The translations under genes and the position numbers were made by a program. This document shows, one piece after another, positions 6,862 through 62,970 of a DNA stretch of 64,000 bases (the first letter of the stretch is position 1; each line of letters starts with the position of its first letter). A model generated the notes under the pieces. The model was given only the letters and a program-made list of their open reading frames with translations. It was not told the origin of the DNA and made no database searches. This stretch comes from Cellvibrionaceae bacterium (GTDB taxonomy: Bacteria > Pseudomonadota > Gammaproteobacteria > Pseudomonadales > Cellvibrionaceae). The stretch covers positions 6,455 to 70,454 of the forward strand of contig JAGKWQ010000014.1 in NCBI GenBank assembly GCA_021151825.1, given 5' to 3'.

Positions 6862-6870
6862 AATGAAGTC

Positions 6871-7079: not shown

Positions 7080-7111
7080 ACTTTTAATTAACGTATATAA
7101 GGAGGGTTCCT

Positions 7112-8905: not shown

Positions 8906-8937
8906 ATCCCCCGCGCAAGCCAAAATGCGCGGGGGAT
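8906..8937 (+). terminator. Intrinsic terminator-like hairpin after the hydrolase
   Basis: Perfect 12-bp stem ATCCCCCGCGCA / TGCGCGGGGGAT with an 8-nt loop, followed by TATTATT. Confidence 0.8.
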
Positions 8938-9632: not shown

Positions 9633-10475
9633 ATGAAGGTAGCAGTTATTGGTGCGGGCATCATGGGCGTTGATCTTGCCTTGGCATTGGTTGCTGCAGG
9701 GCATAAAGTCTTGCTCAAGGATATACATCAAGATGCGCTTGATTTTGCAAAACAAGCTATACCGCAAAAATTGCGTGGTTATAAGATGCTGAATCCCGCA
9801 CTCAGGAATGTGAGTGTCGAAAGTGTTTTTGAATCAATTCACTTTGTGTTGACCTATGCAGGAATGGATCAGGTTGATTGGGTTGTTGAAAATATCCCTG
9901 AAGATGTTGAACTGAAAAAAAAGGTGTATCAGGAATTGGCTTCCGCTTGCAATAGCTCTGTTTATTACGGAGTTAATACAAGTTGTATATCGATCACAAA
10001 GATTGCCGCCGTTACACCGGATCCATCGCGGGTAATTGGAATGCATTTTATGAACCCTGTGCCAATCAAAACCGGGGTTGAAGCCATACGCGGCTACCAT
10101 ACATCCGAAGAGACTATAGACGCAGCAAAACAATTTCTTAAGTCAATGAATAAACAAATGATTTTGGTAAACGATTACCCCGGGTTTGTTGCCAATCGTT
10201 TATCGCATTTATTTATGAATGAAGCAGCATTTCTGGTTCAGGATCGGGTTGCAGACCCGGCGGCAATTGATGCAATTTTCAAGGAAGGTTATGGGCATAG
10301 TATGGGGCCATTGGAGACGGCTGACTTGATCGGATTGGATACTGTAGTGCTATCTCTGAAAGTACTTTATGAAAACTATCAAGATACTAAATTCAGATGT
10401 TGCCCATTACTACAAAAAATGGTGGATGCAGGCGATCTGGGTAGAAAGAGTGGTAAAGGATTTTACGTCTATTAA
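9633..10475 (+). CDS. 3-hydroxyacyl-CoA dehydrogenase-like (FkbK/ZmaG/XcnB-type, glyceryl-ACP dehydrogenase)
   Basis: GAGIMG, VVENIPE, NTSCISIT, GMHFMNPVP, PGFVANRL, GPLETADLIGLD. First gene of the FkbH cassette. Confidence 0.9.
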   Translation: MKVAVIGAGIMGVDLALALVAAGHKVLLKDIHQDALDFAKQAIPQKLRGYKMLNPALRNVSVESVFESIHFVLTYAGMDQVDWVVENIPEDVELKKKVYQELASACNSSVYYGVNTSCISITKIAAVTPDPSRVIGMHFMNPVPIKTGVEAIRGYHTSEETIDAAKQFLKSMNKQMILVNDYPGFVANRLSHLFMNEAAFLVQDRVADPAAIDAIFKEGYGHSMGPLETADLIGLDTVVLSLKVLYENYQDTKFRCCPLLQKMVDAGDLGRKSGKGFYVY

Positions 10476-10483
10476 TTTGGGGA

Positions 10484-11569
10484 ATGACGATGCTGACGAT
10501 CGATAAAGAAAGGATTTATCCTGCTTCATCCAACAATCAAAAGCTGCAGCCGATTAAATGTGTTGTATGGGACTTGGATAATACCGTATGGCACGGCGTA
10601 TTAGCAGAAAATGATGAGCTTGTTTTGAAGGATGGTGTTGTCGATATTATTGCGGCCCTTGATAAAAAAGGTGTACTTCAGTCCATTGCCAGCAAGAATA
10701 ATTATGATGATGCAGTCAATAAGCTGGAGCAATTCGGGCTGCTTGATTACTTTCTTTACCCTCAAATCAATTGGAATGCAAAGTCATCTTCCGTTGAGCT
10801 GATTTGTAAAAGTTTGAATATTGGTATCGATACATTCCTGTTTATTGACGATCAACCTTTTGAGCTTGAGGAAGTAAAGCTCGCTCATCCACACGTAGAA
10901 ATTTTTGATGCTGCCGACTACCAATCGCTGATGGAGTTTACCCGTATAGATTCTATTGCAGTAGCTGATGACGCAGCTATGCGCAGGGTTCGCTACCAGG
11001 AAGATATGAAGCGGCATCGTAGTGAGGAAGAGTTTGTAGGAACGCCAGAGGCTTTTCTCGCTTCTTTAAATATGGTTTTTACCATTTCAAAAGCATCCCC
11101 CGAGGACTTACTTAGGGCGGAAGAACTGACGGTTAGAACCAATCAACTGAATTCAACGGGTATTACTTACAGTGCAGACGAATTATTTGAATTCATGCAT
11201 TCAGATAAACATGAATTATTAATTTGTGAGTTGACTGATAAGTATGGCTCATATGGAAAAATTGGCCTGACACTAATAGAAAAATGTGAGTCCGTTGATG
11301 TAGTTAAGTTATTACTGATGTCGTGTCGTACAGCTGCTCGTGGAGTAGGTAGTGTATTACTCAGCTATTTAATGCGGCAGGCAAAATCACGCGGTAACTC
11401 GTTGCACGCAGAATTCAGAAGGACGGATCGTAATCGGCAAATGCTGGTTACCTATCAATTTTCAGGTTTCGTAGAACAAAGTCGAGATGCCGAAGGGAAC
11501 ATTTTATTTGAGCACAACCTAGCTGATATCCAGGAATATCCTGATTATATAAAAGTTTTTCATCCGTAA
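10484..11569 (+). CDS. fkbH: FkbH-like glyceryl transferase/phosphatase (HAD-IIIC)
   Basis: VWDLDNTVWHG, SIASKNN, YPQINWNAKS, FIDDQPFE, RTNQLNSTG, DKYGSYGKIG, LLMSCR. Confidence 0.93.
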   Translation: MTMLTIDKERIYPASSNNQKLQPIKCVVWDLDNTVWHGVLAENDELVLKDGVVDIIAALDKKGVLQSIASKNNYDDAVNKLEQFGLLDYFLYPQINWNAKSSSVELICKSLNIGIDTFLFIDDQPFELEEVKLAHPHVEIFDAADYQSLMEFTRIDSIAVADDAAMRRVRYQEDMKRHRSEEEFVGTPEAFLASLNMVFTISKASPEDLLRAEELTVRTNQLNSTGITYSADELFEFMHSDKHELLICELTDKYGSYGKIGLTLIEKCESVDVVKLLLMSCRTAARGVGSVLLSYLMRQAKSRGNSLHAEFRRTDRNRQMLVTYQFSGFVEQSRDAEGNILFEHNLADIQEYPDYIKVFHP

Positions 11570-11609
11570 ATTGTCATTTTAAATAGTTATTGTTAGGGAA
11601 AGGAATTTT

Positions 11610-11876
11610 ATGCGCTATTCAGAACCACTAGTCCGCGAAAAAATTCGCCAATTTATCATTGCCAACATGAATAGCTTTGAAGAGATTGAGCTTTTAGATA
11701 GTGACAATATTTTTCAGAGCGGCTTTGTGAGTTCAATTTTTGCTATGCGTTTGCTCAATTTTATTGAGAAGGAATTTTCAGTACAAATTCCCGACGATGA
11801 TATTTTGCTTAAAAACTTCAGCTCTGTTGATGTGATGAACGAGATGGTTTCCCGTTTGCAATCTGAAACGGCTTAA
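11610..11876 (+). CDS. Stand-alone acyl carrier protein (FkbJ/ZmaD/XcnD-type)
   Basis: 88 aa acidic protein, DNIFQSGFVSSIFAMRL phosphopantetheine site, located between fkbH and the ACAD. Confidence 0.88.
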   Translation: MRYSEPLVREKIRQFIIANMNSFEEIELLDSDNIFQSGFVSSIFAMRLLNFIEKEFSVQIPDDDILLKNFSSVDVMNEMVSRLQSETA

Positions 11877-11890
11877 TAGCAGTGCACCCA

Positions 11891-13048
11891 ATGAACAATA
11901 AATCAGTACATCCATTAGTTGCGCAAGCAAAGGCATTTGTTGATACATCAATTCGTCCTTATGCGGGGCAGTTTGATGCGCAGGGAGAAGTCCCTCAAGA
12001 GATTGTCAGGGCAATGGCTGATAAAGGTTTTTTAGGTTCCATTTTGCCCATTGAATATGGCGGCTTGGGGCTTGATGCGTTGGCGTATGGTTATTTGACC
12101 GAAGAGCTTGGCAAAGGCTGTAACTCAGTTCGTACGTTGCTAACTGTACACACTAGCCTTGTGGGTGAAACGTTAGCCCGGTTAGGAACCGCATTCCATA
12201 AAGAACAGTATCTCACGGCGATTGCAAAGGGAGAAAAGATTGCATGTTTTGCACTCTCTGAGCCGGGAGTAGGAACAGATGCAACGGCGGTGCAAACATC
12301 CTATATCGAAGACGGTGATAACTTTGTTATCAATGGCCGAAAAAAATGGATTTCATATGCAGCAATTGCTGATGTTTTTTTGGTATTTGCGAGTGACGCC
12401 ACAGGAGCAGTCAGTGCTTTTTTAGTGGAGCGTGGTGACGGTGTTACTACTGTGCCAATGACAGGTATGTTGGCTAGCCGTGGCTCCCATATTGCAGAAG
12501 TTTTTTTTGACAATGTACGCGTACCTAAAAGGAATCTTGTTGGCCGTTTGGGAATGGGATTTAGCTTCGTAGCCAATACGGCTTTATTTTATGGTCGCTA
12601 TAGCATTGCCTGGGCGGGAGTTGCACTTGCGCATGCTGCAGTCGAAGAAATGGCAACTTATGCTCGTACCCGTGAACAGTTTGGAAAAAAAATAGGGCAG
12701 CATCAACTCGTTCAAGGATTGATTGCCGATGCAGTAACCTCACTGCACCTTGCCCGATCAACGTGTGAAAAGGTGGCCATGTTGCGCATTGCAGAAGATG
12801 ATGAAGCAATTATGGAAACTAATATTGCAAAATATTTTACGTCAAAAATTGCCATGGATATTACTACCAATGCGGTACAGGTTTTTGGCGGTAATGGATG
12901 TTGGAATATTTATCCGGTTGAAAGACTTTTCCGGGAAGCAAAAGTGCTGGAAATTATCGAGGGAACATCCCAGATACAACAGGTAATGATTGCTGAATAT
13001 GGAATTAAACGCTATTACCGCGCGCTATCTAAAGTTGAATACGCGTAA
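11891..13048 (+). CDS. Acyl-CoA dehydrogenase-like (FkbI/ZmaE/XcnE-type)
   Basis: FALSEPGVGTD, NGRKKWIS, REQFGKKIGQHQLVQ, AVQVFGGNG, EIIEGTSQIQ. ATG 11891 preferred over GTG 11882. Confidence 0.9.
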   Translation: MNNKSVHPLVAQAKAFVDTSIRPYAGQFDAQGEVPQEIVRAMADKGFLGSILPIEYGGLGLDALAYGYLTEELGKGCNSVRTLLTVHTSLVGETLARLGTAFHKEQYLTAIAKGEKIACFALSEPGVGTDATAVQTSYIEDGDNFVINGRKKWISYAAIADVFLVFASDATGAVSAFLVERGDGVTTVPMTGMLASRGSHIAEVFFDNVRVPKRNLVGRLGMGFSFVANTALFYGRYSIAWAGVALAHAAVEEMATYARTREQFGKKIGQHQLVQGLIADAVTSLHLARSTCEKVAMLRIAEDDEAIMETNIAKYFTSKIAMDITTNAVQVFGGNGCWNIYPVERLFREAKVLEIIEGTSQIQQVMIAEYGIKRYYRALSKVEYA

Positions 13049-13195
13049 CGAATCTCAAAACACAGTATCAATAAAAAGGGAATTTTGGTGTTAGCAAACG
13101 CAAGGAGGAAGTGCCTGACTTGAGGCATAAATTCCGTCCCTGTAGCCATTAGAAATCATTCAGGTTTTAGACGCAAAAACGGAATTGGTAGAATC

Positions 13196-16100
13196 ATGTT
13201 TACTACGCTCATTGATGCACTTATTGCTTGCAAAAAAACCGAAAAAGGCATTGTCTTCATCAAGAATACTGAAGAAGACGATTTTCTTTCTTATGCGGAT
13301 CTTTACAAAAGAGCAATTCATTTACTGGCTCATTTGCAGCATTCTGGCGTGCAATCAGGCGATGAGTTGGTGCTGCAATGTGCATCCTTACAAGAGCTTA
13401 TGGAAGGCTACTGGGCGTGTTTACTTGGGAAAATAGTGCCGGTGCCCCTGGCATTAGCAGATCAGGGTGAGAATGCCTTAAAAGTATTTAATGTGTGGTC
13501 GGCTTTACAAAAGCCATGGTTGTTGGCGGACACTCCCGCTGTATTGGAGAAGTTATCCAGTTTTGCCGGAAAGCATAATCTCGCTAACGAATTTATAGAA
13601 ATCTCTACAAAAACACTGTTGATTGAGCATTTTCCAGAGGATTCCGGAACACCGGAACTTCCCACAGTTACACAAGATGATATTGCTTTTATCCAATTCT
13701 CTTCCGGCTCTACAGGCGCGCCAAAAGGAGTTGTGCTTACCCACCATAATCTGCTGGTAAACATTCGCGATATCCTGGCATCCGTCCAACATACTGAATC
13801 TGATTCTTTCCTCAGCTGGAAGCCAATCTCCCATGATTTCGGCATGATTGCATTTCATTTGGCTCCTGTTGTTGGTGGTTCTACGCAATACCGTATTTCA
13901 ACTGACGCTTACATATGGTCGCCTTCTTTATGGTTCAGTTCGGTTAATAAATATCGAGCAACTATTTTGGGTTCCCCCAACTTTGGTTATCGTCATTTTT
14001 TAAATCTTTATCGCCGCGGAAACCCCGATGGATTTGTTTGGGACCTAAGTTGTGTAAAAGCCATATTTAATGGCGCTGAACCTATATCGGCCAAACTGTG
14101 TGACGAATTTTATCGTGAGCTTGCGCCTTATCAATTAAGTCAGAATGCGATGCGACCAGGATATGGTTTGGCCGAGGCATCGCTAATTGTTTCTTTGTGC
14201 AAGCCAACGGATCTGGTTCGTGAAATATCTATCTCAAGGCATCAGGTGTCGCAAGGGCAGGCGATTGAAATTGTGTCTCCAGATCATAAAGATGCCGTGC
14301 AGTTTGTTGATTGCGGTGTTCCTTATCCATCAACACAAGTTCGAATCACGAATAAAAACCGCAAGCCGGTTGCTGAAGGAATGGTTGGCAATGTTGAGAT
14401 CAAAGGAGAAAATGTCACCACGGGTTATTACGCTAACGAAAGTGCAACAAAAGAAGTGCTGGACAGCGACGGATGGTTAAATACCCAAGACCTTGGTTTT
14501 ATACATGAAGGCCGTTTATTCATCGTTGGTCGCACCAAAGAGATGATTATTATTGGTGGTGTAAATTATTTCCCTCATGATATAGAAAAAGCAATTTTAC
14601 ATGAGATGGGCGATGGCGATTTAAATCGTTTTATCGCGTGTGGAATTAAATCCGTTAAGACTGAAAGTGAACAGCTGGTTATTTTTGTTTATCACAAAAA
14701 AAGTAGCCAGGATTTTGCCCCATTGGTGGAGCAAGTTAAAAAAATTGTATTGGATTCCCTGAATCTCAGGGTTGCCCATGTTGTTCCCGTCAAGCGCATA
14801 CCAAAAACTACCAGTGGCAAAGTTAAACGTTTTGCGTTAGTGCAAGCTTTCAATGAAGGCGCCTACGATGCGGAGCTAGAAACACTAGGGCAGCCCCGTG
14901 AACAAATTATAAACCCGGCGATCAATGCAGAACCGCAAGCCGAAAATGAATCATTTCCAGCTATTAAATTGGCGGATATCCGTAAGCGCGTATGTGCGTT
15001 GGTTGCGGCACTCAGTGGTATTTCCAGCATTGACCCATCAGCCAGTTTTTTTGATTTGGGCCTGACCTCTTTGAAATTGGTGATATTGCAGGAGCAAATT
15101 GAGGAAAGTTTTGGTGTGCAACTCAGCAGCACATCTACGCTGGATAATCCCACGGCTGAATCTCTGACACAAAATATTTTTAATACACTGACAGCGAGAT
15201 CTGTTGATGTCACTCACCAGAAACCTGCAAATCACATTGCCAATAATGACGCAATTGCGATTATCGGTATGGCCTGTCGTTTTCCCGGTGAAACGAATAC
15301 TCCTGACGCATTCTGGCAATTATTAGCAAATAGTATTGATCCGGTTGCCGATATGCCCCTGGAGCGATGGCAAGATGACTTGCAAGCCCAGGTAAATGTG
15401 ACAACACGCAAAGGGGGTTTTCTTAAACAGGTTGATCAATTTGATCCCTATTTCTTTGGTATTTCTCCTATTGAAGCCGAATCACTTGATCCGCAACAAC
15501 GATTGTTATTGGAAGTTTGCCACGAAAGTTTTGAAAATTCCGGTTTGGATGTCCCGGCATTAATTGGCTCCAATACCGGTGTATTTCTAGGAATTTCCGG
15601 GAGCGAGTATGCAGCTGTTGCAAAAGAATATGGTCACGGAACGGGGCCTTATACATTTACCGGCTCAATGTTCAATACTGCTGCCGGCCGAATTTCTTAT
15701 GTTTACGGTTTGCAAGGCCCTTGTATAGCATCTGATACCGCATGTTCTTCTTCGTTAGTTGCGGTCCATCAAGCTTCGCGCGAATTGCGTTCGTTCTCTT
15801 GCGATATGGCGGTCGCTGCTGCAGTTAATTTAATGTTGAAACCTGATGGGCATATCAGTTTTTCAAAAATGAATGCATTGTCCGGTCAGGGCAAGTGTCG
15901 CAGTTTTGATGAAAATGCTGATGGATACATTCGCAGTGAAGGTTGTGCGGCAATTGTTATGAAACGCCTTGCAGATGCCGAGCGCGATGGTGACAACATT
16001 ATTGCCGTTATCCTTGGCTCTGCCGTTAATCATAACGGGCGCAGTGGTGGCCTCACTGTACCTAGCGGTAATGCCCAGGAAAAACTGGTGCGCAAAGCAT

Positions 16101-19100
16101 TACACGCTGCCAATGTTAATGCCGACGATATTGATTACGTAGAGGCCCATGGTTCGGGGACAAAATTGGGTGATCCCCAGGAAGTGGATGCACTGAATAA
16201 AGTATTTGGTCATCGCCGCCGCCCATTATGGTTAGGCAGTGTGAAATCCAATATGGGGCATTTGGAAAGTGCTGCCGGATTAGCCGGTCTGATGAAACTC
16301 GCACTTTCGCTAAAACAGGGTTTGTTAGCTCCCAACCTGCATTTTTCTACACCCAATAGCATGATCGATTGGGAGAATTCCCCATTACGAGTGGTTAATA
16401 AATTAATTGCCTGGCCAGAGAGTAAATCACCACGCACAGGTGCTATCAGTTCATTAGGTATTAATGGCACGAATGTTCATGTTATTGCTCAATCGCATTC
16501 GGCCGCTGAATACCCGGTTGTACCCGTTCGCCATAACGCGCCCTATTTATTTACCTTATCGTCAAAATCAGATGCCAGTTTACGCAATACTGTAAAAGCA
16601 TTTTCTGAAACAGATTTATCAGTTTATCCGCTGGCAGAATTATGCCGTGCAGTTAATTTCCAACGTTCCAGCTATGCATCACGTTTTGCTTGCCTGGTTT
16701 CCAGCACAGAAGAGCTGCAAAAAAAATTGCAACGTTATGTTGATGGAAACTCCGTACCATCCTGTCTGGCTTCGCCAGGTGGTCGTTTTGGCCGGGAACC
16801 TGTTGTATTTCTCTATACCGGCCAGGGGTCGCAATATTCCGGGATGGGTGAAAGCCTATATAAAAATTCGCCGCATTTTAAAGTTTCATTTGATGAATGT
16901 GACCGTTTATTTGCAGAAACACTTGGCGTATCCCTGCTTGATGTCCTGTACGGTGAACAAAAGGATTTATTGTCACAAACGCATATATCCCAGGCATTAA
17001 TTTTTAGTATTGAATATGCATTAACTGCTTTCTGGCACTCGCTGGATATTGTTCCCGATTATGTATTGGGGCATAGCATCGGCGAATACGCAGCGGCCTG
17101 CGCGGCAGGAATTTTGGAATTACCTGATGCAGTAGCAATGGTGTCCCTGCGTGGCAACGTGATGCAAGGCAGCAATGCCTCGGGCAAGATGGTGGGAATA
17201 TTAGGTAGCCGCGAACAAGTAGACACGCTGTTGGCAGAGTGTCCGGGCGCTTATATCGCAGCAGTGAATACAGCGGAAAATTTCACAATCGCTGGCACAA
17301 CAACAGCTGTTGAAAAATGTGTTGCCGCAGCAAAGCAAGCAAGAGTTTTTACTGAAGCCTTGCCAATGCAACACGCTTTCCATACTCCATTGATGGCTGC
17401 GTCAGCGGCGGAACTTGCACAAGGTTTGGATGGCATTCGATTTAATTCCCCAACAATTCCTTTTGTGTCTACTAAAACCGGACGTGTGATTGAATCAGCC
17501 ACGGATATTGGTGTGAGTTACTGGAGTGAACATCTCTCTTCACCGGTATTATTCGCCGATGCAATACAGACGCTGATACAAGCTGGGGCAAATTATTTTA
17601 TCGAGTTAGGTGGTACTGCAACCCTGACGGGCCTGGCCGCACAAATTATTGATACTGATGATGCCTGTTTTGTTCCATCATTGCGCCAAAACCGCGATGC
17701 CTGGACCCAGATTAGTGAAAGCCTCGCACAACTTTATTTACAAGGCGCTGCTGTAAATTGGAAATCGTTCCATGGCGGACGCCCGACACCGCTCACGTCC
17801 TTGCCTAATACCGTTTATCAACGTGAAACCTATTGGTTTAAAAAACTGAATGAAAGCACCAATTCAGAAACACAAATTCAAAATAAATCCAATCTGATAA
17901 GCACTGCCACTGTTGCTATTGCAGCAAAAACTCCTGCTAGAGACATCGCCCCCGTTGTTACTGAATTAACACTACAAACGGTGGTTTCTGATGTTCGCCA
18001 AATGATTAGCCAGGTAACTGGTGTGGCGGAAACAGATCTCGCTGATGACGTACATTTATTTTCCCTGGGCGTTGATTCATTGATGCTGGTGCAGCTTGAT
18101 AAACGCATCACCGGGCGTTATCAGGTTGAAATAACCATGGGTGAGTTTTTTAGCGAATTGAATACGCCACAAGCGATAGCAAATCATATTTTTACCAAGA
18201 CCCCGGAAGAAATTCGTGCTCGTTATCGCCAGATAATTACTCCTGCTGAGGCTGGATTACCTGCTGTGCCAGCAGCCGATGCAAGTATTGCGGCGATTGT
18301 GCAAACCCAGTTGGCATTAATGCAACAACAATTGGCGTTATTAGGTGGGCAGCCAATCAATGTTAATTCATCGGTTGGTCCTGTTGCGATAACGTCTGTG
18401 CCGGGCACAAAAAAACCATTGCTTGCGCCAGAGAAAAAGCGTGCAAATATTCGTGATATTGTTCTTGAAGAAGAAAATATTAATGCGCAACAAAAAGCAT
18501 TTGTTGCGCAACTTGTCAGTGAGCTGACGGCGAGAACCGGCAAATCAAAAATTTATGCGGAGCAGCATCGCGATGGTTTTGCAGACTGGATTGCCACGCT
18601 CAATTTCACACTAACGACCAAAGAATTAATTTATCCGCTGGTTGCAGAAAGCTCGAAAGGTAGCCGCTTCCTCGATATTGATGGCAACGAATATATTGAT
18701 ACTGCCATGGGTTATGGTGTTTGCCTGTTCGGACACAACCCCGATTTTGTGGCAGAGGCAATCCAGCAGCAATTGGTGAAGGGAATAGAACTTGGCCCTC
18801 AATCTGCAATTGCAGGCGAGGTAGCGCAATTGGTGCGAGACCTGACTGGGGTTGAACGGGTTGCATTTGCGAATACCGGCACAGAAGCAGTAATGGTTGC
18901 TATACGCCTTGCCCGCGCTGCAACAGGTCGCCGTAAAATTGTTCGATTTATTACATCCTTCCATGGTTCATTTGATGGTGTGCTTGCAGAAGTTGGTGAA
19001 AATGGTTCAGAACCAATGGCATCCGGTATTCCACAATCCATGGTCGATGACACTATCGTTTTGCATTACGGTGCAGAAGATTCATTAACCCGAATTATTG

Positions 19101-24873: not shown

Positions 24874-24891
24874 GTTGCCAAGAATCGTCCT

Positions 24892-29598: not shown

Positions 29599-29626
29599 TT
29601 GGGATTAATCGATAACAGCTACTGGA

Positions 29627-34438: not shown

Positions 34439-34526
34439 TCCACATTAAAAGATTGCCAATGAATAAAGGCTCAAGGAATAAAGTTTCAAAGAATAAATAC
34501 CCCGGGAACGGTTTGAGGAAATTTAA

Positions 34527-41384: not shown

Positions 41385-41450
41385 ATTTAACTCGTTATAA
41401 ACCTGTGGTGATACCAGGTAGAAAATACCGGGACTGTATGGAAGTAAATT

Positions 41451-50600: not shown

Positions 50601-51757
50601 GGCTGTTACGCAGCAGCCTTAGCCGCAGTTTCAAACGCTTGTGTTGGGTCCAGCACAAAGCGGGGGATGAACTGGCATTGCCATACCTTGATTTATCTCC
50701 TTATTCCCTGGAAACAAAAAAGAATATTGTTGAATACATTATGAAACAACAATATGCCGTAAATTTCGATGCTGAAAAGGGCGTTATGTTCAGGGTTATC
50801 CTGATTCGGCTGGATTTGCGCAGATCCACATTATTATTCAATTTGGACCATTCCATTTTTGACAATATGAGTGGTCAGGTTCTCAAACGGCAATTATTAA
50901 ATCGTTATCGCGCTCTGTTAGCCGGAACTACTGCCAGACCCGTACCAGCAAAATCGTTTAATGAATATTTGACGCAAATCAATCGCGGACCGCAAGGTGT
51001 TTCACCGGAGTGGTTAATAAAATTATTTGATCTGGAAGCTTACGGTAAAGCCCGGCTGAAAGTAGAAGATAAAATCATTGCCAATCGCCAACCTAAATTC
51101 AGCAAGCTGCGCTATGAAATTGACCTTTCAAGCTATCAATTAGCTGCTGACGATCAGGTTGCCTGGGAGGTCAGTGTCAGTGTTATTGCATACACATTGG
51201 CACGTTATCTTAACCAGGAAGACATTCCACTTAAATTGCTATATCAAGGGCGAAAATATCAGGACATTTCGTTCTTTGATACGCTGGGGCTATTTGTTGA
51301 TGTCATTCCTTTATTAATTCGCACTCGCGCGAATGGCCAGGGTGCAGACATTGTTTCTGACATCAGTCGCAAATTTAACCTGATTAATCGCTATAACGTT
51401 AACTTCATGAACATGATGCTAAATCTTGGCATGTTAGTGAAATGGCGCGACGTATTGGGATTCATTGCGCCTAAAAAGTTATCGAAACAAGATCCAATGA
51501 TTTTGTTGAATTACGTAGGCAAAGCAGGGGATGAATATAAAAATATTCTCGATCTTTCAATTAATTCAATGCTCGAATCAGAAGGAAAGCTGGACTACGC
51601 CAGCTTTTACATTATTGCGACCCAGATGGATGGAAAAGTTGTTCTGGACATCTTGTGTAACTTTGAAAAGGACATGGAGATTATAAGAAATATTATGCAA
51701 CAAGAGACGAACAGATTATTAGGTACTGAAGATATCAATTATTTATTGAAAGCTTGA
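44693..51757 (+). CDS. Terminal PKS module KS-AT-(degenerate KR)-cMT-ACP-terminal C-like domain; no TE
   Basis: KS HSACSTS/EAHGTGT/NIGHLD; AT GHSLGE/HAFH; KR structural remnant without a GxGxxG or YxxxN motif; cMT ILEAGGGYG and NVVHAT; ACP GGDS; C-like domain YNLSPFQ...DHSIFD (50846-50863). Confidence 0.85.
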   Translation: MNIKTTTTGLEIAVIGLSGRFPGAIDIHEFWKNLISASDTIDLLSLEELRAAGVDEELLQQPNFVKAKGVFPELEFFDAEFFDYTPRDAETIDPQVRALHQGVYHALEDAGYPADGRKRNIGLFAGASGNFNWELATLLKASSGSASQFAAIQLNDKDFSATRLAYKLNLCGPSVTVHSACSTSLYAIDLACRNLYTGACAMAIAACSGLTLPHRNGYLYEDGMIKSPDGKCRPFSMEANGTVEGNGMGVVVLRPLADAVKAGDRIYAVIRGTAANNDGNRKVGYTAPSVEGQAEVIRRAIFMAEVEPESITYIEAHGTGTNLGDPVEIESLKKAFNTEKRNFCGIGSLKSNIGHLDTAAGISSFIKTVLALKHRELPPTVNFTEANPEINFEQSPFHVITERQQWQRPAHPEEINAFLPLRAGVSSFGIGGTNVHVILEEAPEITASSPSSEWNTLCVSAKNEAALARAVQQLNYYIDANRTMNPADLAYTYHVGRGQFAHRKTWAYKTLEDLQVQLTQESEQTRIAKSPLRVAFLFPGQGTQYPAMASGLYQQIPQFRSELEKCLAICEQIGEAHIRGLLLSPRDGDEQVIRATSSAQLSLFVIEYSLAKTLMEWGVKPYAMLGHSLGEYVAACIAGVFTLDDALKLVSQRGKLMQAMAPGAMLAVNLSEQQLRECIPVGLDIAAVNGPEQCTVAGSLVMIDSFASSLQKQNVIAKPLQTSHAFHSAMMEPMLDEYERILGEIEFKRPQLAYVSNVTGTWISDAQAMDRRYYLDHVRQAVRFADGITQLIVEENTLFVEVGAGGVLTAFAKQQPQARAIPAISLVRHIKKDIEDAHFFAQAIGELWAHGATLDWRKFYNMQQRQLLDAPFYPFAKTPLVINYGDIYSLLKGFSAPANVIGNNITYPQHFSWQDALVNKATDNDIVYPCLIFNTHKGKQKKFSLIGGLRPIQISDSDKYLKIAANNYGIDPGNGADYRRLIRDLTREDGVPQLLLWHRNLTAKTDISELRLHINSALDAFSDECTHQSFRAVLVFTTQDAPVEKDSFHWELWVRTIMLAYNNIQISVVFQLGKPKKHAVDRLLEQEIYLSGAKENLVLLKDNRRYVYLPHSSSYIPAGELQASGKSYAVLAPTGYPIHAFSDSLQKISGAYVDSYPVNLPIDSHRKSNIKNDIRVIDNDIVQTQAIYLNQYGIQDTSASHRLMDELCANLIAGYIDRFLPLQPGSIFNRNDLTQALQVIPKLEKYVDYFIQILLTDRILELVTSSNDTFKVIKSIIDLRKKETIRDELNQNDFFCGQVKLLEHCVTHFDRALSGAVPAIEVLYPAGSNSLLKSTYENSIQEQEDEFIRMLFEKIIGKITGQVKKIRILEAGGGYGLMMRRIMPLLKKMKNVEYYFTDIGTTFLEQAKNYALDNQCDFMTFGLFDINKPAQDQGLEENSFDIVFAFNVVHATHSIGTSIENLKALLVDKGILCLLERTNVRRYVDLIWGLADGWWHFDNAERQLSPLMPIEKWEALLKEKGFESILAYPDTTALRERLDVGVILAQNQLPAPAKNYLPDVTPNNIEAKAYDQVFIIDLPLVQLKSGFRSIAGNKAKINVAQKYFESASQVLASIKTNSSIILTQASPDTDCDYGPMQLESRIEFEKKTNAASIYLPFDKTVEGYSQTIPDRQAFSKGLAVIVSGWSHGVIEAGHQSLFSLPSRPVLSYGASTTNDETSSSMEASEGYETLLITILSDLFGIENLTANDDFFELGGDSLKVAQLTTELAKHGLKVSPNEIFNNTRISQLAGYLAVHCKSADENIITRDDLVQYFSSKHGVSADFISYQVAGKRQNILFLDDVALQTSGGYIQELAALNIVADIQPDYVYPLSRIINVPLSMDSDLFSNSFALQNIEADQYKKIAQMVTHQQRRLSLQIIRGEVEEQYNLSPFQKMYLKSTARVSLYEIEFEEMIDRQLLNRAFSDVVATQGLLRSSLSRSFKRLCWVQHKAGDELALPYLDLSPYSLETKKNIVEYIMKQQYAVNFDAEKGVMFRVILIRLDLRRSTLLFNLDHSIFDNMSGQVLKRQLLNRYRALLAGTTARPVPAKSFNEYLTQINRGPQGVSPEWLIKLFDLEAYGKARLKVEDKIIANRQPKFSKLRYEIDLSSYQLAADDQVAWEVSVSVIAYTLARYLNQEDIPLKLLYQGRKYQDISFFDTLGLFVDVIPLLIRTRANGQGADIVSDISRKFNLINRYNVNFMNMMLNLGMLVKWRDVLGFIAPKKLSKQDPMILLNYVGKAGDEYKNILDLSINSMLESEGKLDYASFYIIATQMDGKVVLDILCNFEKDMEIIRNIMQQETNRLLGTEDINYLLKA

Positions 51758-51804
51758 TAAAAGGTGTATCGATTACTGATTTTTACTATTAACGAGAAAC
51801 TACT

Positions 51805-53058
51805 ATGTTATTCACTCTATCAATCCGTAACGCATTTCGACATCGAGGTCGATTATTGTTGACTACATCCATTGTGATGGTAGCCAGCCTTCTGCTTGTT
51901 ATTGCTGTTGGTCAAATTGGCGGTATTAATCGCACATTGACTAATAGCGTAACTGACACGCTCACCGGTCATATCAATATAAAACCGCAAGGCGCACCGG
52001 TCGCCTTTTTTGAATTCGCATCACCTAAACGTTTGGAATTGATTCGTGCTGAAGATGTTGAAGATGTTATCGCGCGCGTATCTGCACTTCCAATGGTGGA
52101 AGCAGTGACTCCGCGGATTAAGTTCGGCTCATTGATTGGTAACGATGAGAAATCTATACCCGCAATGATTATTGGTGTAGATCCGGAAAGGGAAGGGAAG
52201 GTATGTACTGACCTGGTTAATATTGTAAAACCCCTGCAGGATTCAGGAAATGCTGTATTGGCAACTTACCTGGCGAACCGTGTGGGCATTCAGCAGGGCG
52301 AGAATATTTTGGTATTCAGTGAAACCGCTGACGATAGTTTTAACGCTGCAGAATTTAAAATTGACAGCACTATCGATACGCCGGTACTCATCGATGAATT
52401 TATTAATTCAGTGTTTCTGGTAGATATACAAACTGTGCGGGATTTGTTGTACCTGGATCAATCCGCATCAGAAATTAGCATTCGCTTGAAACCCGGCTAT
52501 ACCACCGACCTTGCAGCGGCTCGTGATGCGATTAATCGTGCACTAACTCCAGCCCAGCAAGCGTATCTCAAAACTTATACCTATCGGGAAGTAGAGCAAT
52601 CAATAGAAGGTATATCCGGTATTGCGGCAGGCATGGGAACAATTCAGGTTGGGACCATCATGTTAATTATGCTGGTCACTGTATTGATTATTACGAGTAT
52701 TACTTTACATGAGCGTCGCTTTGAAATCGGGGCGCTAATGTCTATTGGAATGTCTCCTGCAAAATTAACAGCTATGTTCGTTATGGAAGTAGGAATAAAG
52801 GTGGTGTTAGGGTACGTGTTGGGCGCAATTCTTGGATTCCTGATTCTGCAAGGAATTAATTTTTCAGGAGGAATTAAAGCGGCTAATCAGGTGGACCAAT
52901 ACATCTATGGTGGCAAGGTTATGTTTCCCATTGTGGACTACGCCAACATTGCCTTAGGCATGGTATTGGTTGTTAGCATCGCCTTGCTGATTACGCTGGG
53001 AACCTGCATAAAAGCATCACGCCAGGATATCGTTGGCCTGCTGAACAGTAAAAAATAG
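51805..53058 (+). CDS. ABC transporter permease, FtsX/LolE/MacB family
   Basis: IRNAFRHRGR N-terminus, large periplasmic domain, ERRFEIGALMSIG motif, C-terminal TM helices. Confidence 0.9.
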   Translation: MLFTLSIRNAFRHRGRLLLTTSIVMVASLLLVIAVGQIGGINRTLTNSVTDTLTGHINIKPQGAPVAFFEFASPKRLELIRAEDVEDVIARVSALPMVEAVTPRIKFGSLIGNDEKSIPAMIIGVDPEREGKVCTDLVNIVKPLQDSGNAVLATYLANRVGIQQGENILVFSETADDSFNAAEFKIDSTIDTPVLIDEFINSVFLVDIQTVRDLLYLDQSASEISIRLKPGYTTDLAAARDAINRALTPAQQAYLKTYTYREVEQSIEGISGIAAGMGTIQVGTIMLIMLVTVLIITSITLHERRFEIGALMSIGMSPAKLTAMFVMEVGIKVVLGYVLGAILGFLILQGINFSGGIKAANQVDQYIYGGKVMFPIVDYANIALGMVLVVSIALLITLGTCIKASRQDIVGLLNSKK

Positions 53059-53067
53059 GAGAAAATC

Positions 53068-54321
53068 ATGGAGTTCAATGCGACCTGGGCATTAGTGTTA
53101 AAGAGTATTTTTAGAAATAAATCCCGCAGTTTTATGTTGGGTTTGTTAATTTGTTTTGCTGCCTTTGTTATGGCATTTTTCACCCAGTTTCTGATGGGAG
53201 TCAGCAAAAATTTTACCGATAATCTGGTTGAACTCGCCAGCGGGGACATATACATTTCCAGTGAAATAAAGGACCAGCGCGATCAAAACATTTTTGATCG
53301 GGAATACGAATACTTTCGTTACTCACCCGAGTTTTACACGGAGTTAGAAAAGCTGAATGGTTTTGTGAGTTCGCATCCGCGTTTGGATATGGCCGCACGT
53401 ATTGTCACCAGCCAGGATTCTATTGATTTTTCCCTCTCGGCATTTAATCCGGCAGAGGAAGCGTCGTTACTCAAAAACTTTGTGATTATTGAGGGGCGGA
53501 TGATAAAACCTGATGCCTACGAAATTATTGTCCCGGAAGATTGGGCCAGACGTCATCAGATAGTACCCGGCAATTCAGTTTCCGTTATGTCCCGCTCCGT
53601 GGATCGCCGGATAAATTTGCTTGGTTTTACTGTGGTTGGCACATTCAAAACCAATAGCCTTTCTGCCTGGTTTAATAATTCTGTATATACCAGTATTGGG
53701 CCAGCCCGGGCTTTGGTTAATGATCCGCAAGTTGTCACTCGTTTGAACCTGCGCTTTGCGAGTGGTTTTGATAAAGATAAAGCCATTGCTGAAGTAAACG
53801 CGGTGATGAAAAATCACATTGGCGATAAGAACCCCACACTTAATGCTACCTACTGGAAAGATGGCGCCGAATTTTTTACCTCTCTGGTAGCAGGTATTGA
53901 GGCGGGCTTCTTCATTGTTATCGGTGTTATCTGTTCAATTCTAGGCGCATGTATTGCACTTACTACAGTCATGGGAATTATGGAGCGCAGCAAGGAGATT
54001 GCAACGTTGGGTGCACTGGGTGCTGCTCCCAAAACAATTCGTAAAATATTCTTAATGGAAAATGTTTTCCTATCCGATATCGCATCGTTGTTAGGCATTT
54101 CAATTGCGGCGGTTGCTTTCATTATCACGGCTAAAACAGGGCTGCCAATCAATAACCCCGAATTGGAAGGTTTTCTCGGGGCATCACATTTTTATCCAGC
54201 CTATGATGTTGCTGGATTCATCGGCGCGTTTCTCATTACCAAGCTGGTAGCAACGAATGCTACTTTTTTTATAGCAGGCTGGGCGGCAAAACGTTCAATT
54301 GCTGATGCTATGGCTGAATAA
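53068..54321 (+). CDS. ABC transporter permease, FtsX/LolE/MacB family (second paralogue)
   Basis: KSIFRNKSRS, ERSKEIATLGALG, same topology. Confidence 0.9.
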   Translation: MEFNATWALVLKSIFRNKSRSFMLGLLICFAAFVMAFFTQFLMGVSKNFTDNLVELASGDIYISSEIKDQRDQNIFDREYEYFRYSPEFYTELEKLNGFVSSHPRLDMAARIVTSQDSIDFSLSAFNPAEEASLLKNFVIIEGRMIKPDAYEIIVPEDWARRHQIVPGNSVSVMSRSVDRRINLLGFTVVGTFKTNSLSAWFNNSVYTSIGPARALVNDPQVVTRLNLRFASGFDKDKAIAEVNAVMKNHIGDKNPTLNATYWKDGAEFFTSLVAGIEAGFFIVIGVICSILGACIALTTVMGIMERSKEIATLGALGAAPKTIRKIFLMENVFLSDIASLLGISIAAVAFIITAKTGLPINNPELEGFLGASHFYPAYDVAGFIGAFLITKLVATNATFFIAGWAAKRSIADAMAE

Positions 54322-54356
54322 CTTTTTTCAATTTAATTTTTTTAGGGGCTAATATC

Positions 54357-55130
54357 GTGGAAATCGTCTTAAAAGATGTTACTAAGCACTATCAGCTAGG
54401 CCAGACAACTGTACATGCTCTCAAAGGTGTAAATCTCACGGTTAAATCCAATGATTTTTTAACAGTTGCAGGTCCTTCAGGCAGTGGGAAAACCAGTCTA
54501 TTAAATATGATTGGTTGTATCGATTCGCCGACCAGTGGGTCAGTATTATTTGATGGAGTAGATGTAAATCAATTGAGTCTTACCGAAAAGGCATTACTGC
54601 GTAATGAAAAAATTGGTTTCATATTCCAGTCATTCAATCTCATGCCCGTGTTGTCGGTGTATGAGAATATTGAATTACCAACGCTGATTGGAAAAAAGCC
54701 ACGTAAACGCAAGGATACTCGCGATTGGATTATGCATCTCATTGCCGCGGTAGGTTTAGAAACCCGTGTAAAACATAAACCTGATGAACTTTCCGGCGGG
54801 CAACGCCAGAGAGTTGCGATTGCGCGGGCATTGGTTAATAACCCGGCATTGATTTTGGCTGATGAACCAACTGCAAACCTGGATTCAGATACGTCGCTGA
54901 TTATTCTTGATCTAATGCGTCAGCTTAATAAAGAAGAGAATACCGCCTTTTTATTTTCAACCCACGATCCTGATATTGTTGCCCGTTGCGACACCGTTAT
55001 TCATGTGCGCGATGGATTAATAGTTAATACGTTAACCCAGACACCTGTTGTAACCCTGCCTGCCGCACACATTATTGACGGTGTTATGCAGGTTCCACCG
55101 GGCAATACCATTCCGTTGGCAACTAAATAA
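54357..55130 (+). CDS. ABC ATPase, LolD/MacB family
   Basis: GPSGSGKT Walker A, IGFIFQSFNL, LSGGQRQRVAIARAL, LADEPTANLD, THD. Confidence 0.95.
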   Translation: MEIVLKDVTKHYQLGQTTVHALKGVNLTVKSNDFLTVAGPSGSGKTSLLNMIGCIDSPTSGSVLFDGVDVNQLSLTEKALLRNEKIGFIFQSFNLMPVLSVYENIELPTLIGKKPRKRKDTRDWIMHLIAAVGLETRVKHKPDELSGGQRQRVAIARALVNNPALILADEPTANLDSDTSLIILDLMRQLNKEENTAFLFSTHDPDIVARCDTVIHVRDGLIVNTLTQTPVVTLPAAHIIDGVMQVPPGNTIPLATK

Positions 55131-55144
55131 AAGGAACCCTGGAT

Positions 55145-55951
55145 ATGAATATACAATCTGGTATACGAAGGTCTGGTTTTTTTCTGTTGCTAATTAGTAT
55201 TTTGTCAGTTAATGCGGTGGCACAAACTGCTGCAGTAACTGGCGCTATTGCCGCCGGCAATACTACTGAAATATCAAAAGAAGATATTAGCAATTTATTG
55301 AAAAACCTTGAATCAAGCATGTTGCCTGCCGTGGCTTCTGCATCAATGCGTATGATAAGTTTTAAAAATGGGAAGAGCGTTAAAACAATCGATATGAATT
55401 TTAAAGTTAAAAGTGACAACGTATTGATTGATATACAAGCTCCGGCAGTGGACAAAGGTAAATATATTCTTAAATCGGAAGATAATTTGTGGATGTATTT
55501 CAGTAAAATAAAACGCTCGATACGCATTGCTTCACGAGATAGCTTCATGGGAACTGATGCCAGTAACTATGATTTGCTGGAATTAAATTTAATTGATGAT
55601 TATGAACTGAAATCCGCAGAAGAAACTGTTTTGGATAATCGCAAAGTTTATCGGCTGGAGCTTTTCGCCAAGCCCAATACTGAAGGCTACAACCAGATTG
55701 TAAGCTGGATTGATGCCGAAGAACGCCGCATTATTAAAAATGATTGCTATGCAATATCAGGCACCATGATTAAAACCATTAATTATGAAAGTTATGAAAA
55801 GGTCGATTCCTATCTGGTACCCAGCAGAATCAACATTAGCAATCATCTTGAGAATGGTAGAAATAGCATTATTGAAATATCCAGGGTTACTGCGATCAAG
55901 GATCTTGATGAGTCTACTTTTAGTCTCGGCTACCTGGAGTCCCTTAACTAG
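55145..55951 (+). CDS. Periplasmic LolA-like 'outer membrane lipoprotein-sorting' protein
   Basis: Signal peptide, P...KG...L....NLWMY, RSIRI, FMGTDASNYDL motifs of the LolA-like family. Confidence 0.8.
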   Translation: MNIQSGIRRSGFFLLLISILSVNAVAQTAAVTGAIAAGNTTEISKEDISNLLKNLESSMLPAVASASMRMISFKNGKSVKTIDMNFKVKSDNVLIDIQAPAVDKGKYILKSEDNLWMYFSKIKRSIRIASRDSFMGTDASNYDLLELNLIDDYELKSAEETVLDNRKVYRLELFAKPNTEGYNQIVSWIDAEERRIIKNDCYAISGTMIKTINYESYEKVDSYLVPSRINISNHLENGRNSIIEISRVTAIKDLDESTFSLGYLESLN

Positions 55952-56000
55952 GGGCTCCAATATTATTTATTGAGTTATTGACGGTTAGAGCAGGTTTTTA

Positions 56001-57257
56001 ATGAAGGTTTTTTTATCTGTGGGGGGAGTACTATTAACCATCGGACACATGGCAGCTGCCGGGACGCTCTTTGACGGCGCCATTCCTACAGATGGAGAAT
56101 TGAATTTGGGTTATGGTGCGATCAAAAATCCCGACGGTGATTTTGATAGCCAGGAGCATTATTTAGGCGGTCAATTAAAAATTAGGCCATCAGATACCAG
56201 CATTTTCTTGCTAGATGGTTTTTTGAAAAGTAAAAAGGTTAGTGACTTTAATGCTGAAGGGAGTTTTTTTTCATATCGAGATACCGAGCAACGATTGAAT
56301 CAATTATATGCTTCCATCAGATTTGATGGTGGTCATAAATTAACTGTGGGGCGGCAGCGCCTATTGTGGGGACATGGATTCTCTTTTATTCCTACGGATT
56401 TTATTAATCCTCCGCGTGACCCCGGTGCACTGGATATTGAAAACCGAAAAGGCGTTGATTCAATTTCGTTGGATATTTTTGGCCGTAGAACCAGTTACAC
56501 ATTTTTGGTTAATCTGGATAAAAGCAACGATCCCGGTTTTGGTGGAAAAATAACAAACAGTAGTGTGGCTGGATTGGATTTAAATGCTGTTTATTATTAT
56601 GCAAAGGAAACAGGTAACGCGGCAGGGATATCTTTTTCTGCCGATCCATTATCCTGGTTTAGTATAGGCAATGGCGAATTAACCATGATAGGGAGTGTTG
56701 CGGTAAAACAGAAATCCTCGTACTTTCGCCCTGTCTTCCAATCCGATATTAATGGTGCAACTTATTGGGCCCCAGGCGAACCTATTGCGGGTGATGAAGG
56801 AAATATCTATTCATCGCTTTATGGATTGTATTACGAGCTACCTCAGTATCGTATATCTATGCGTGCTGAATATTATCGCGTCGGCGATGCCTATAGTGCG
56901 TTACAACTCCAGAGCTTATATGGCGGACTAAATAATCAATACCAACTTTATAAGCCATGGGAAAATGCATTACCAACAGGCCGCACGCAGCAGCATTATG
57001 TAAGCCTTTCCTTTGGCCAGGATAAAATCACCGATGCAACCGGGATCAAAATAAGTGACACGTTTGGTTATAGTTTTTCTTATTTGCAAGGGCAGGATGA
57101 TAAGTCGGAATTGTTTTCGGCTGCATTAGTATCGACTTATTTTGAAACTATGGAAATAGCGGCAAACTGGTTTATTCCTGTAGGGAACAGCCATTCTGAA
57201 TTTAATGATGCCAACTATGACTATATTTTCAATCTATCCTTTAAAGTTATTTTTTAG
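56001..57257 (+). CDS. Putative outer-membrane beta-barrel protein
   Basis: Signal peptide, alternating aromatic strands, GRQRLLWGHG..PTDFINP motif, C-terminal LSFKVIF with terminal Phe. Confidence 0.65.
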   Translation: MKVFLSVGGVLLTIGHMAAAGTLFDGAIPTDGELNLGYGAIKNPDGDFDSQEHYLGGQLKIRPSDTSIFLLDGFLKSKKVSDFNAEGSFFSYRDTEQRLNQLYASIRFDGGHKLTVGRQRLLWGHGFSFIPTDFINPPRDPGALDIENRKGVDSISLDIFGRRTSYTFLVNLDKSNDPGFGGKITNSSVAGLDLNAVYYYAKETGNAAGISFSADPLSWFSIGNGELTMIGSVAVKQKSSYFRPVFQSDINGATYWAPGEPIAGDEGNIYSSLYGLYYELPQYRISMRAEYYRVGDAYSALQLQSLYGGLNNQYQLYKPWENALPTGRTQQHYVSLSFGQDKITDATGIKISDTFGYSFSYLQGQDDKSELFSAALVSTYFETMEIAANWFIPVGNSHSEFNDANYDYIFNLSFKVIF

Positions 57258-57272
57258 TAGAGAAAGTTTATT

Positions 57273-57998
57273 GTGAGCAAAACGGTGTTATTTGGCGTTC
57301 CTTATGCAGGAGGAAGTGCAGCAGCAATTTATGGAAAATGGGCCAGGCATCTTGGCGAACATATTCAACTTATTCCGTTAGAGCTTGCAGGCCATGGTCG
57401 ACGCACTAACGAAAATTTTCACGATAATATTGCCGTTGCTGTTGCAGATATGCTGCAAACCATAAAAGAAATTGCGCGATCAAATACCTATGCATTTTAT
57501 GGGCATAGCATGGGTTGTGTGTTGGTGTATGAATTATTGAAGGCAATTGGGAGTGCTGGGTTGCCCGCTCCCAAAACAGTATTTTTATCGGGCAGAAACC
57601 CTCCTCATCATGTTTATGCGGGAAAAGATATTCATTATTTGTCAGATGAGGCTTTCTTGACAGAGATAAAGAAAGTAGGGGGGACACCTATGGAGTTTTT
57701 TGAACTTCCGAGCCTGGTACAAATGTTCCTGCCGGTATTACGCGCGGACTATCGTCTGATAGAGCGGTATCGTTATGCAGAACCACGTCATGTTACATCA
57801 GCAAATCTGATATTTCTTAGCAGTGATATGGATCCCCTGGTTACCCGACCAGATACTGAGGAATGGCGCCACTATACAAGCTCACAGTTTGAACTGCATA
57901 ATTTTTCGGGTGGGCATTTTTTTATTAATCAAGCCTACGCTGAAATTTGCAATCTAATCACTCAAAAATGCAGTGACACTCCGAAAGTTTATGCTTAA
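57273..57998 (+). CDS. Type II (editing) thioesterase
   Basis: PYAGGSA, ELAGHGRR, GHSMG nucleophile, LRADY, GGHFFI. Confidence 0.93.
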   Translation: MSKTVLFGVPYAGGSAAAIYGKWARHLGEHIQLIPLELAGHGRRTNENFHDNIAVAVADMLQTIKEIARSNTYAFYGHSMGCVLVYELLKAIGSAGLPAPKTVFLSGRNPPHHVYAGKDIHYLSDEAFLTEIKKVGGTPMEFFELPSLVQMFLPVLRADYRLIERYRYAEPRHVTSANLIFLSSDMDPLVTRPDTEEWRHYTSSQFELHNFSGGHFFINQAYAEICNLITQKCSDTPKVYA

Positions 57999-58877: not shown

Positions 58878-58886
58878 CCATCAAAC

Positions 58887-59855: not shown

Positions 59856-59952
59856 TTTTTAAAAAATTTCATTTTTAATGTCCGGTTTTTGGGTTTCGTC
59901 TGTCATGTTTTTTGAAAATTTCGTTCAATGACTTTTGACCTGGATATAACCG

Positions 59953-62960: not shown

Positions 62961-62970
62961 TTAGATTTCT

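Follow-up and report, generated by a model that had tools for sequence, protein, structure and literature searches.

Mycosubtilin and iturin synthesis is started by a megasynthase (MycA or ItuA) that consists of an acyl-adenylating domain, an acyl carrier protein (ACP), a ketosynthase (KS), a further ACP, an in-line class-III aminotransferase and a condensation-adenylation-thiolation (C-A-T) module, and the acyltransferase (AT) is the discrete protein FenF. FkbH-type cassettes, which provide hydroxymalonyl- or methoxymalonyl-ACP, are known from FK520 (FkbGHIJK), zwittermicin and xenocoumacin (XcnBCDE). Colibactin synthesis uses an ACP-bound aminomalonyl extender that is made by a trio of 3-hydroxyacyl-CoA-dehydrogenase-type enzyme (3HCDH), ACP and acyl-CoA-dehydrogenase-type enzyme (ACAD), and its FabD-like discrete AT, ClbG (~420 aa), serves AT-less modules beside cis-AT modules. 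Finally, the crocacin system is a myxobacterial cis-AT line in which two reducing ketide modules elongate Gly into a 6-aminohexadienoyl unit. Here we describe a cluster in which such elements are joined. It occupies positions 9633-57998, on the + strand, of a 64,000-nt stretch of Cellvibrionaceae DNA from contig JAGKWQ010000014.1 (this whole stretch is referred to as the window). Judged from its sequence, the cluster is probably a functional, operon-like hybrid of nonribosomal peptide synthetase (NRPS) and polyketide synthase (PKS) modules, from a cluster family that is conserved among Gamma- and Betaproteobacteria and uncharacterised.

The starter protein shares the mycosubtilin/iturin domain order (AMP-binding, PP, KS, AT, PP, Aminotran_3, Condensation, AMP-binding, PP), a gene for a discrete FabD-like AT is likewise present in the cluster, and a close homologue of the starter is labelled 'iturin family lipopeptide synthetase A' by JGI. 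It differs from those systems in that a cis AT (motifs GHSIGE/HAFH) lies between the starter KS and the second ACP in addition to the discrete AT, so that supply is not of the FenF-only kind, and in that the first amino acid is Gly instead of Asn. Moreover, the remainder of the line is rich in PKS modules, and a type I thioesterase (TE) for ring closure on the beta-amine is lacking. The likeness to FkbH-type cassettes is based on an FkbH domain scoring above its curated cut-off and on a dedicated small ACP and the 3HCDH- and ACAD-type oxidoreductases adjoining it. Unlike in those cassettes, there is no O-methyltransferase, and the three ATs of the cluster look malonyl-specific and lack the GYSFGE/GAAHS signature of ZmaA. 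The first-pass annotation of this DNA had drawn these same two analogies, and both are sound, although the three malonyl-type ATs do not point to a destination for the cassette's product.

By analogy, the 3HCDH/ACP/ACAD trio and the discrete AT of ~420 aa amid AT-less and cis-AT modules would be counterparts of the colibactin elements, with the difference that the precursor here would be glycerate delivered via FkbH, whereas it is serine, delivered via an A domain, in colibactin synthesis. The comparison with crocacin is one by description only: in both lines a 6-aminohexadienoyl unit would arise from Gly through two reducing ketide modules, and both end, without a TE, at a C-terminal condensation domain, but crocacin has neither a 3-amino fatty acid starter nor an FkbH cassette and is a cis-AT system. 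All parts of the cluster are of known kinds, and a described example of their combination was not found in the open-access literature, where full-text searches returned no paper on a product or cluster of such make-up; this is in agreement with the earlier statement that no characterised cluster matched. The solanimycin and legionellol clusters were considered as known relatives and dropped, because their architectures differ. The source names of homologues in the databases were generic only.

Composition and integrity of the cluster

The open reading frames (ORFs) listed for the window form an unbroken + strand run over the ~48 kb of the cluster, with intergenic gaps of -4 to 147 bp. An extra 88-aa ORF at 11610-11876 raises the total to 17 genes. 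Their gene and domain content was called with Pfam and NCBIfam, against curated cut-offs where these are given, and comprises four genes for an FkbH/ACP/dehydrogenase cassette, six for megasynthases, one for a discrete FabD-like AT, five for a MacB/Lol-like exporter and one for a type II thioesterase (TEII). This agrees with the first-pass annotation, in which a co-directional operon of ~48 kb with extender cassette, six megasynthases, discrete AT, exporter and TEII had been described. The features are as follows (KR, ketoreductase; DH, dehydratase; E, epimerisation domain; cMT, C-methyltransferase; FAAL, fatty acyl-AMP ligase; E followed by a number, E-value).

9633..10475, + strand: 3HCDH-type enzyme, FkbK/XcnB-like role (PF02737, PF00725)
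10484..11569, + strand: FkbH-family glyceryl-ACP-forming phosphatase/transferase (TIGR01686, 253.8 bits, cut-off 146.65)
11610..11876, + strand: free-standing ACP of 88 aa (PF00550, weak, E 1.8e-4; NF005480, 34 bits, under cut-off)
11882..13048, + strand: ACAD-type enzyme, FkbI-like role (PF00441, PF02771, PF02770)
13196..23611, + strand: starter megasynthase, 3471 aa (Pfam: FAAL(1-560)-ACP-KS(685-1050)-AT(1204-1518)-ACP(1599-1665)-aminotransferase(1814-2153)-C(2233-2662)-A_Gly(2684-3161)-T, plus a 210-aa tail)
23608..24873, + strand: discrete AT, 421 aa, FabD-like core with a C-terminal extension of ~130 aa (TIGR00128, 308 bits, cut-off 260.9)
24892..29598, + strand: AT-less PKS module KS-DH-KR-ACP (Pfam; DH motifs HKVRDTYVLP, HPALLD)
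29627..34438, + strand: AT-less PKS module KS-DH-KR-ACP (Pfam; DH motifs HKIMHSAVVP, HPSILD)
34527..41384, + strand: hybrid protein, 2285 aa, AT-less KS-ACP followed by C-A(hydrophobic)-T-E (Pfam)
41451..44696, + strand: NRPS module C-A(Val)-T, 1081 aa (Pfam; A3 code DAFWLGGTFK, a Val code)
44693..51757, + strand: terminal megasynthase, 2354 aa (Pfam: KS-AT-[~490 aa unmatched]-cMT-[~200 aa unmatched]-ACP-C)
50450..51754, + strand: terminal condensation-superfamily domain with the motif DHSIFDNMSGQ, probable chain-release catalyst (best solved sequences: C domains of BacC, AmbE and PvdL, ~1e-9)
51805..55130, + strand: MacB/LolCDE-like ABC exporter, two FtsX permeases and an ATPase (PF02687, PF12704, PF00005)
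55145..55951, + strand: LolA-like (TP_0789-type) periplasmic protein (PF17131, E 1.2e-43)
56001..57257, + strand: 418-aa protein, putative outer-membrane beta-barrel (no Pfam/NCBIfam match; signal-like N-terminus; ends ...FKVIF)
57273..57998, + strand: TEII, editing and possibly off-loading (PF00975, E 2.8e-39)

Frameshifts or internal stops were not seen over the 48 kb. The catalytic Cys-His-His residues are retained in all five KS domains (for instance DTACSSS/EAHGSGT/NMGH in the starter and DTSCSS/ESHGTGT/NIGH in the 2285-aa protein), the His and Asp motifs are kept in both DH domains and the tyrosine in both KR domains, and the serine is present in every carrier domain. The KR of the protein at 24892..29598 contains the tyrosine motif YTAAN and is without an LDD-type Asp; that of the protein at 29627..34438 displays 'VAGD', which is B-type-like, together with YAAAN. 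With the cMT motif also intact, and with ends that match those of a metagenome relative (see below), the cluster fits the earlier description of it as apparently complete.

The colinear order of building blocks read in the first-pass annotation agrees well with the domains. The arrangement FAAL-ACP-KS-AT-ACP-aminotransferase is consistent with a fatty acyl group that is extended with malonate and transaminated, and the A1 code DILQLGMVWK, which is a Gly code, supports Gly as the next unit. Two KR/DH ketide units would be provided by the two KS-DH-KR-ACP proteins. The D-aliphatic residue corresponds to the A2 code DGL(F/A)MGGVFK, which is Val-like and hydrophobic, and to an epimerase motif, HHLAVDVISW, at residue 1950 of the 2285-aa protein, located after A2-T in the second C-like domain. 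L-Val is in accord with the A3 code, and a methylated, unreduced ketide with the CurJ-like cMT of a last module in which KR and DH were undetectable, either with Pfam or by comparison with the KR and DH domains of this cluster itself. The A-domain codes were read against a GrsA fragment, whose own code was returned correctly as DAWTIAAICK.

The presence of trans-AT modules could also be confirmed: the proteins at 24892, 29627 and 34527 have no Acyl_transf_1 match, and a free-standing AT is encoded at 23608. The best solved-structure matches of this AT are FabDs, PksC and DisD, its score to ZmaA is just 65 bits, and both its GHSLGE/GAFHS motifs and its ~130-aa extension are conserved in relatives. 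The top solved-structure match of the starter AT is CurL. Starter-type proteins are very common, with 2140 matches at E<=1e-60 across Proteobacteria, Actinobacteria and Firmicutes. The last 210 aa of the starter megasynthase (22976-23608) form a conserved tail behind the Gly carrier domain, whose only similarity is a faint one to the central part of a condensation domain (E 1.7e-4, profile positions 207-275); where NRPS passes into PKS, this tail may serve in docking or may be the relic of a half-domain.

The methyltransferase of the terminal megasynthase is most similar to CurJ 5THY (144 bits), its closest matches being the C-methyltransferases of CurJ, DisA and citrinin synthase, and it retains the NVxHAT His and the Glu, which together argue for a C- and not an O-methyltransferase. 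A methoxy-pyrrolinone end made by an O-methyltransferase was accordingly dropped, since the top matches are all C-methyltransferases. The stretches flanking the cMT, at 47240-48720 (~490 aa) and 49270-49870 (~200 aa) of the window, are conserved in length in relatives and may be degenerate structural remnants of DH and KR domains.

Conservation among relatives

Relatives were found by word-based and profile searches, and their contigs were fetched. The closest one, a JGI metagenome contig (3300051388), has the complete set of 17 genes in unchanged order, from the 3HCDH gene to the TEII gene, and its proteins are 81-97% identical. Its downstream flank differs from that of the window, and the genes of its upstream flank are 65-78% identical to genes of the genome studied here. 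The observation that this relative starts and stops at the same genes, followed by a differing flank, agrees with ends of the cluster at the 3HCDH and TEII genes.

All 17 genes are also present in two Saccharophagus degradans assemblies, where the 3HCDH gene follows the TEII gene and where a second thioesterase and a phosphopantetheinyl transferase (PPTase) are encoded in addition. The front half of the cluster (cassette, starter, AT and the two KS-DH-KR modules) is shared by three further loci of which parts were fetched, those of Massilia sp. W12 and Alteromonas sp. a30 and one on a second metagenome contig. The proteins of the S. degradans and Massilia sp. W12 clusters are 38-67% identical to those studied here, and in both clusters the motif of the terminal C domain is identical and the Gly code conserved. 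In the S. degradans, Massilia and Alteromonas clusters the gene order is nearly that of the window, with variation in the positions of the exporter and of the 3HCDH gene. An orthologue of the 3HCDH is nevertheless present in all family clusters, and the slot of the cassette ACP is filled by an ORF of 86-136 aa in every relative. Conservation of the cassette in every relative examined means that it must have a role. Together, the retention of all 17 genes in the metagenome relative and in S. degradans, and of the front half in the others, argues for selection on an intact pathway.

Searches of the 24 other species of the genus that were covered did not recover the cluster. A search of 400 genomes of the order with the aminotransferase region gave best PKS-embedded matches of 42-46%, none of them orthologous, and the terminal protein as query returned only KS-AT matches of 34-46%, with no shared architecture, from genomes of closely related species. 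S. degradans 2-40 has no PKS/NRPS genes of such complexity (PMC2699552), and therefore the cluster is strain-variable within S. degradans too. In view of these results, the term 'orphan' used in the first-pass annotation holds for the product, which was not found in the literature, and not for the cluster, which is no singleton and belongs to a family conserved in several genera.

The second metagenome contig (JGI 3300010381) carries a more distant family member. At 1357-3273 of this contig, DHQS-like and DeoC-like genes and an ABC-2 exporter lie beside the cassette instead of the Lol-like exporter, so that its export machinery is swapped and its biosynthetic core retained.

Proposed pathway, extender routing and chain release

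The following route can be read from the domain content. FAAL and the first ACP would adenylate and load a fatty acid, KS-AT-ACP would carry out one round of extension, and the in-line class-III aminotransferase is placed to convert the 3-keto into a 3-amino group. The chain would then be condensed with Gly, and the two AT-less KS-DH-KR modules would be expected to build a 6-amino-hexa-2,4-dienoyl stretch, to which the AT-less KS-ACP module would add an unreduced ketide unit. A hydrophobic residue, which would be epimerised, Val, and a 2-methyl-3-keto unit formed by KS-AT-cMT-ACP would follow. Beyond this reading, the discrete FabD-like AT would serve the three AT-less modules, and the FkbH cassette would make hydroxymalonyl-ACP. 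Our preferred view, which draws on the analogy with ClbG, is that the discrete AT moves both malonyl and hydroxymalonyl units and that the unreduced KS-ACP module would most likely receive the latter. The chain would be freed by the C-terminal DHxIFD condensation domain, and the MacB, LolA-like and barrel genes would serve to export a lipid-like product across the envelope.

Several points weigh against this scheme. All three ATs are of the malonyl type (HAFH, GAFH and HAFH), as opposed to GYSFGE/GAAHS in ZmaA, the solved hydroxymalonyl-ACP AT, so that the routing of hydroxymalonyl rests on the ClbG analogy. The specificity of A2 cannot be assigned from its code, and ~690 aa of the last megasynthase are without any match, whether to Pfam or to the KR and DH domains of the cluster. 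In addition, the sequence does not single out a nucleophile for the terminal C domain; the 3-amine, water, the Val amide nitrogen and an outside amine or alcohol are all candidates. An AT specialised for an ACP-linked extender was not found among the three ATs when motifs and solved structures were compared. The AT of the terminal module was considered for this role given its high score to ZmaA (215 bits; 236 bits to SpnD-AT), and dropped, because its motifs (GHSLGE/HAFHS, aligned to CurL and ZmaA) are of the CurL-like malonyl type.

Neither a type I TE nor a reductase domain was found in any megasynthase with Pfam, the only thioesterase being the stand-alone TEII. The last 435 residues of the terminal megasynthase are predicted to form a complete condensation-superfamily fold (AlphaFold2 (AF2) model, pLDDT 81.7), and no carrier domain follows them. 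Foldseek matched this model with probability 1.00 and TM ~0.6-0.69 to C, E, heterocyclisation (Cy) and chain-release C domains, including enacyloxin 6CGO and HtmB2-CT, and no subtype was prominent. The second (catalytic) His and the Asp of DHSIFDN align with HHxxxDG of BacC and AmbE. When 1.84 billion representative proteins were searched with HMMER, 119 matched the domain at E<=1e-30, nearly always, by inspection, at their extreme C-terminus; the closest ones are 2131-2423 aa long and carry the domain at the corresponding position. DHxIFDxxSGQ is invariant in an alignment of 21 family members (D133, H134, I136, F137, D138, S141, G142 and Q143). Heterocyclisation as the sole reading of DHSIFD (as DxxxxD) was dropped, since the domain retains its catalytic His and is most similar in sequence to ordinary C domains. 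These features are consistent with release by a terminal C-like domain, as had been proposed in the first-pass annotation. Crocacin (with the hydrolytic domain CroK-C2), FK520 and C-1027 are precedents for this mode of release that are named in PMC5640695, which also lists trans-esterifying and hydrolytic terminal C domains. As to the product of release, our first choice would be a macrolactam formed via the free 3-amino group; serious alternatives are hydrolysis, closure to an N-acyl-tetramate, and transfer of the chain to an amine or alcohol from outside.

The possibility that the same assembly line ends by one of these other routes is a substantial one, which we rate as short of probable. 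The chain could leave by thioester hydrolysis as in crocacin, as an N-acyl 3-methyl-5-isopropyl tetramate closed from the Val amide nitrogen, a cyclisation that we take to resemble that of JamQ, or by transfer to a free amine. The retained catalytic His, a fold with about the same fit to C, E, Cy and chain-release C domains and the hydrolytic and trans-esterifying examples mentioned above are all compatible with such an ending, but they do not point to a single nucleophile, and a decarboxylase or amine-forming gene, as would suit transfer to an outside amine, is not present in the cluster. A different role for the cassette bears on the same step. It may not supply an extender at all: its ACP, charged with glycerate or hydroxymalonate, could be the acceptor for the terminal C domain, with the chain leaving as an ester of that hydroxy acid, which the thioesterase then frees or cyclises. 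In favour of this are an ACP that is the sole free carrier protein of the cluster, a terminal C domain without a downstream T domain, and ATs that all lack the signature for ACP-linked extenders; besides, cassette and terminal C domain occur together in every family cluster of which both ends were seen. The cassette, however, co-occurs just as well with the AT-less modules and the discrete AT, and hence co-occurrence does not discriminate. Furthermore, a full set of four genes with both dehydrogenases fits a decarboxylative extender, whereas glyceryl-ACP alone would suffice as an acceptor, and an experimental precedent was not found in the literature. We therefore regard this role as unlikely. 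The stronger claim, that the DHxIFD domain and the FkbH cassette make up a new off-loading device in which the chain is moved onto the hydroxyl of ACP-bound glycerate or hydroxymalonate, appears quite unlikely. If true, a widespread, uncharacterised group of C-terminal condensation domains would have a new release logic, and the exported lipo-amino-polyketide-peptides would form a new class.

Two further explanations concern the cluster as a whole. A member of the family might already have been characterised, with an entry in MIBiG or a paper in a subscription journal, which would make the cluster a further member of a known family, given that the negative literature result covers open-access texts and that the starter type is so common, some examples bearing the 'iturin family' label. 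Nothing fitting was encountered in full-text literature, though, the two candidate clusters that were considered differ in architecture and the names of homologues are generic, which makes this explanation unlikely. That the cluster is silent or decaying and yields no product is very unlikely. Its absence from the other species of the genus would agree with such a state, but the lack of frameshifts and internal stops over 48 kb and the intact catalytic motifs would not, nor would an identity of 81-97% between its proteins and those of a relative in which the flanking genes reach only 65-78% against their counterparts here.

Export genes, genomic setting and implications

The lolCE and LolD models match the exporter genes with scores below their cut-offs, which argues that these are not housekeeping Lol genes. 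The 418-aa protein encoded next to the LolA-like gene, a putative outer-membrane barrel on the basis of its sequence features, has orthologues on JGI contig 3300051388 (86%) and in S. degradans (38%); its AF2 model consists mostly of beta strands and, at pLDDT 30, is unusable.

Upstream of the cluster, a strong, terminator-like hairpin at 8906-8937 closes the preceding gene and is followed by an AT-rich spacer of ~700 bp. A tRNA gene was not found anywhere in the window. The G+C content of the cluster is 0.440, compared with an average of 0.459 for the large contigs of the genome, a gap too small to argue for recent foreign origin. The minus-strand genes at 67-8899 encode a GntR/UTRA regulator, a HAD hydrolase, an FAD oxidase, a DUF5690 protein and a TonB-dependent receptor, and the same region contains, in the opposite orientation to this block, a gene for a secreted alkaline-phosphatase-superfamily protein with hemopexin repeats. 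This gene block is absent from the 10 kb upstream of the cluster in the close metagenome relative, and the ABC gene adjoining the cluster there has its homologue at C21:4780-6369, just upstream of the window. Directly downstream, at 58356-63761, lie genes for an extracytoplasmic function (ECF) sigma factor, a FecR-type anti-sigma protein, an STN-domain TonB-dependent receptor and a Fur-family protein. They are probably not regulators of the cluster, because they were not among the genes fetched beside it in relatives; in S. degradans a Fur-family gene is located ~10 kb upstream of the cluster.

The genome is rich in assembly lines, with other large PKS/NRPS genes at C2:6652-9291, C2:63646-73728 and C67:310644-326334. 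Its three homologues of Sfp-type PPTases are all encoded outside the cluster, one of them (C2:74149-74670) beside a PKS/NRPS gene on C2. The assembly also contains a contig with eukaryotic 18S rRNA (C8) and Bacteroidota 16S rRNA on C27 (fragments) and C58 (the only full 16S), and a gammaproteobacterial 16S was not found in it. RpoB, in contrast, assigns the genome to the Gammaproteobacteria, with matches of 77% to a Ketobacter MAG and 71% to Pseudoalteromonas. These rRNA contigs are contaminants, and the genome probably comes from a mixed culture, perhaps with an alga or protist, or is a bin. Contig C32 (1542 b) has a G+C content that reads as 0 and is perhaps masked.

With building blocks that are all known, the cluster is a good genome-mining lead rather than a surprise. 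It raises the enzymological questions of how a hydroxymalonyl unit that is linked to an ACP reaches its destination in a line whose ATs all look malonyl-specific, and what role is played by the large, unstudied group of C-terminal DHxIFD condensation domains, for which the S. degradans carriers may offer a cultivable test bed. If active, the family, which spans distant proteobacteria living on algae, plants and polysaccharides, would make an undescribed class of compounds in which a 3-amino fatty acid is followed by Gly, a stretch of dienoyl ketide, a D/L dipeptide and a keto unit with a methyl group.

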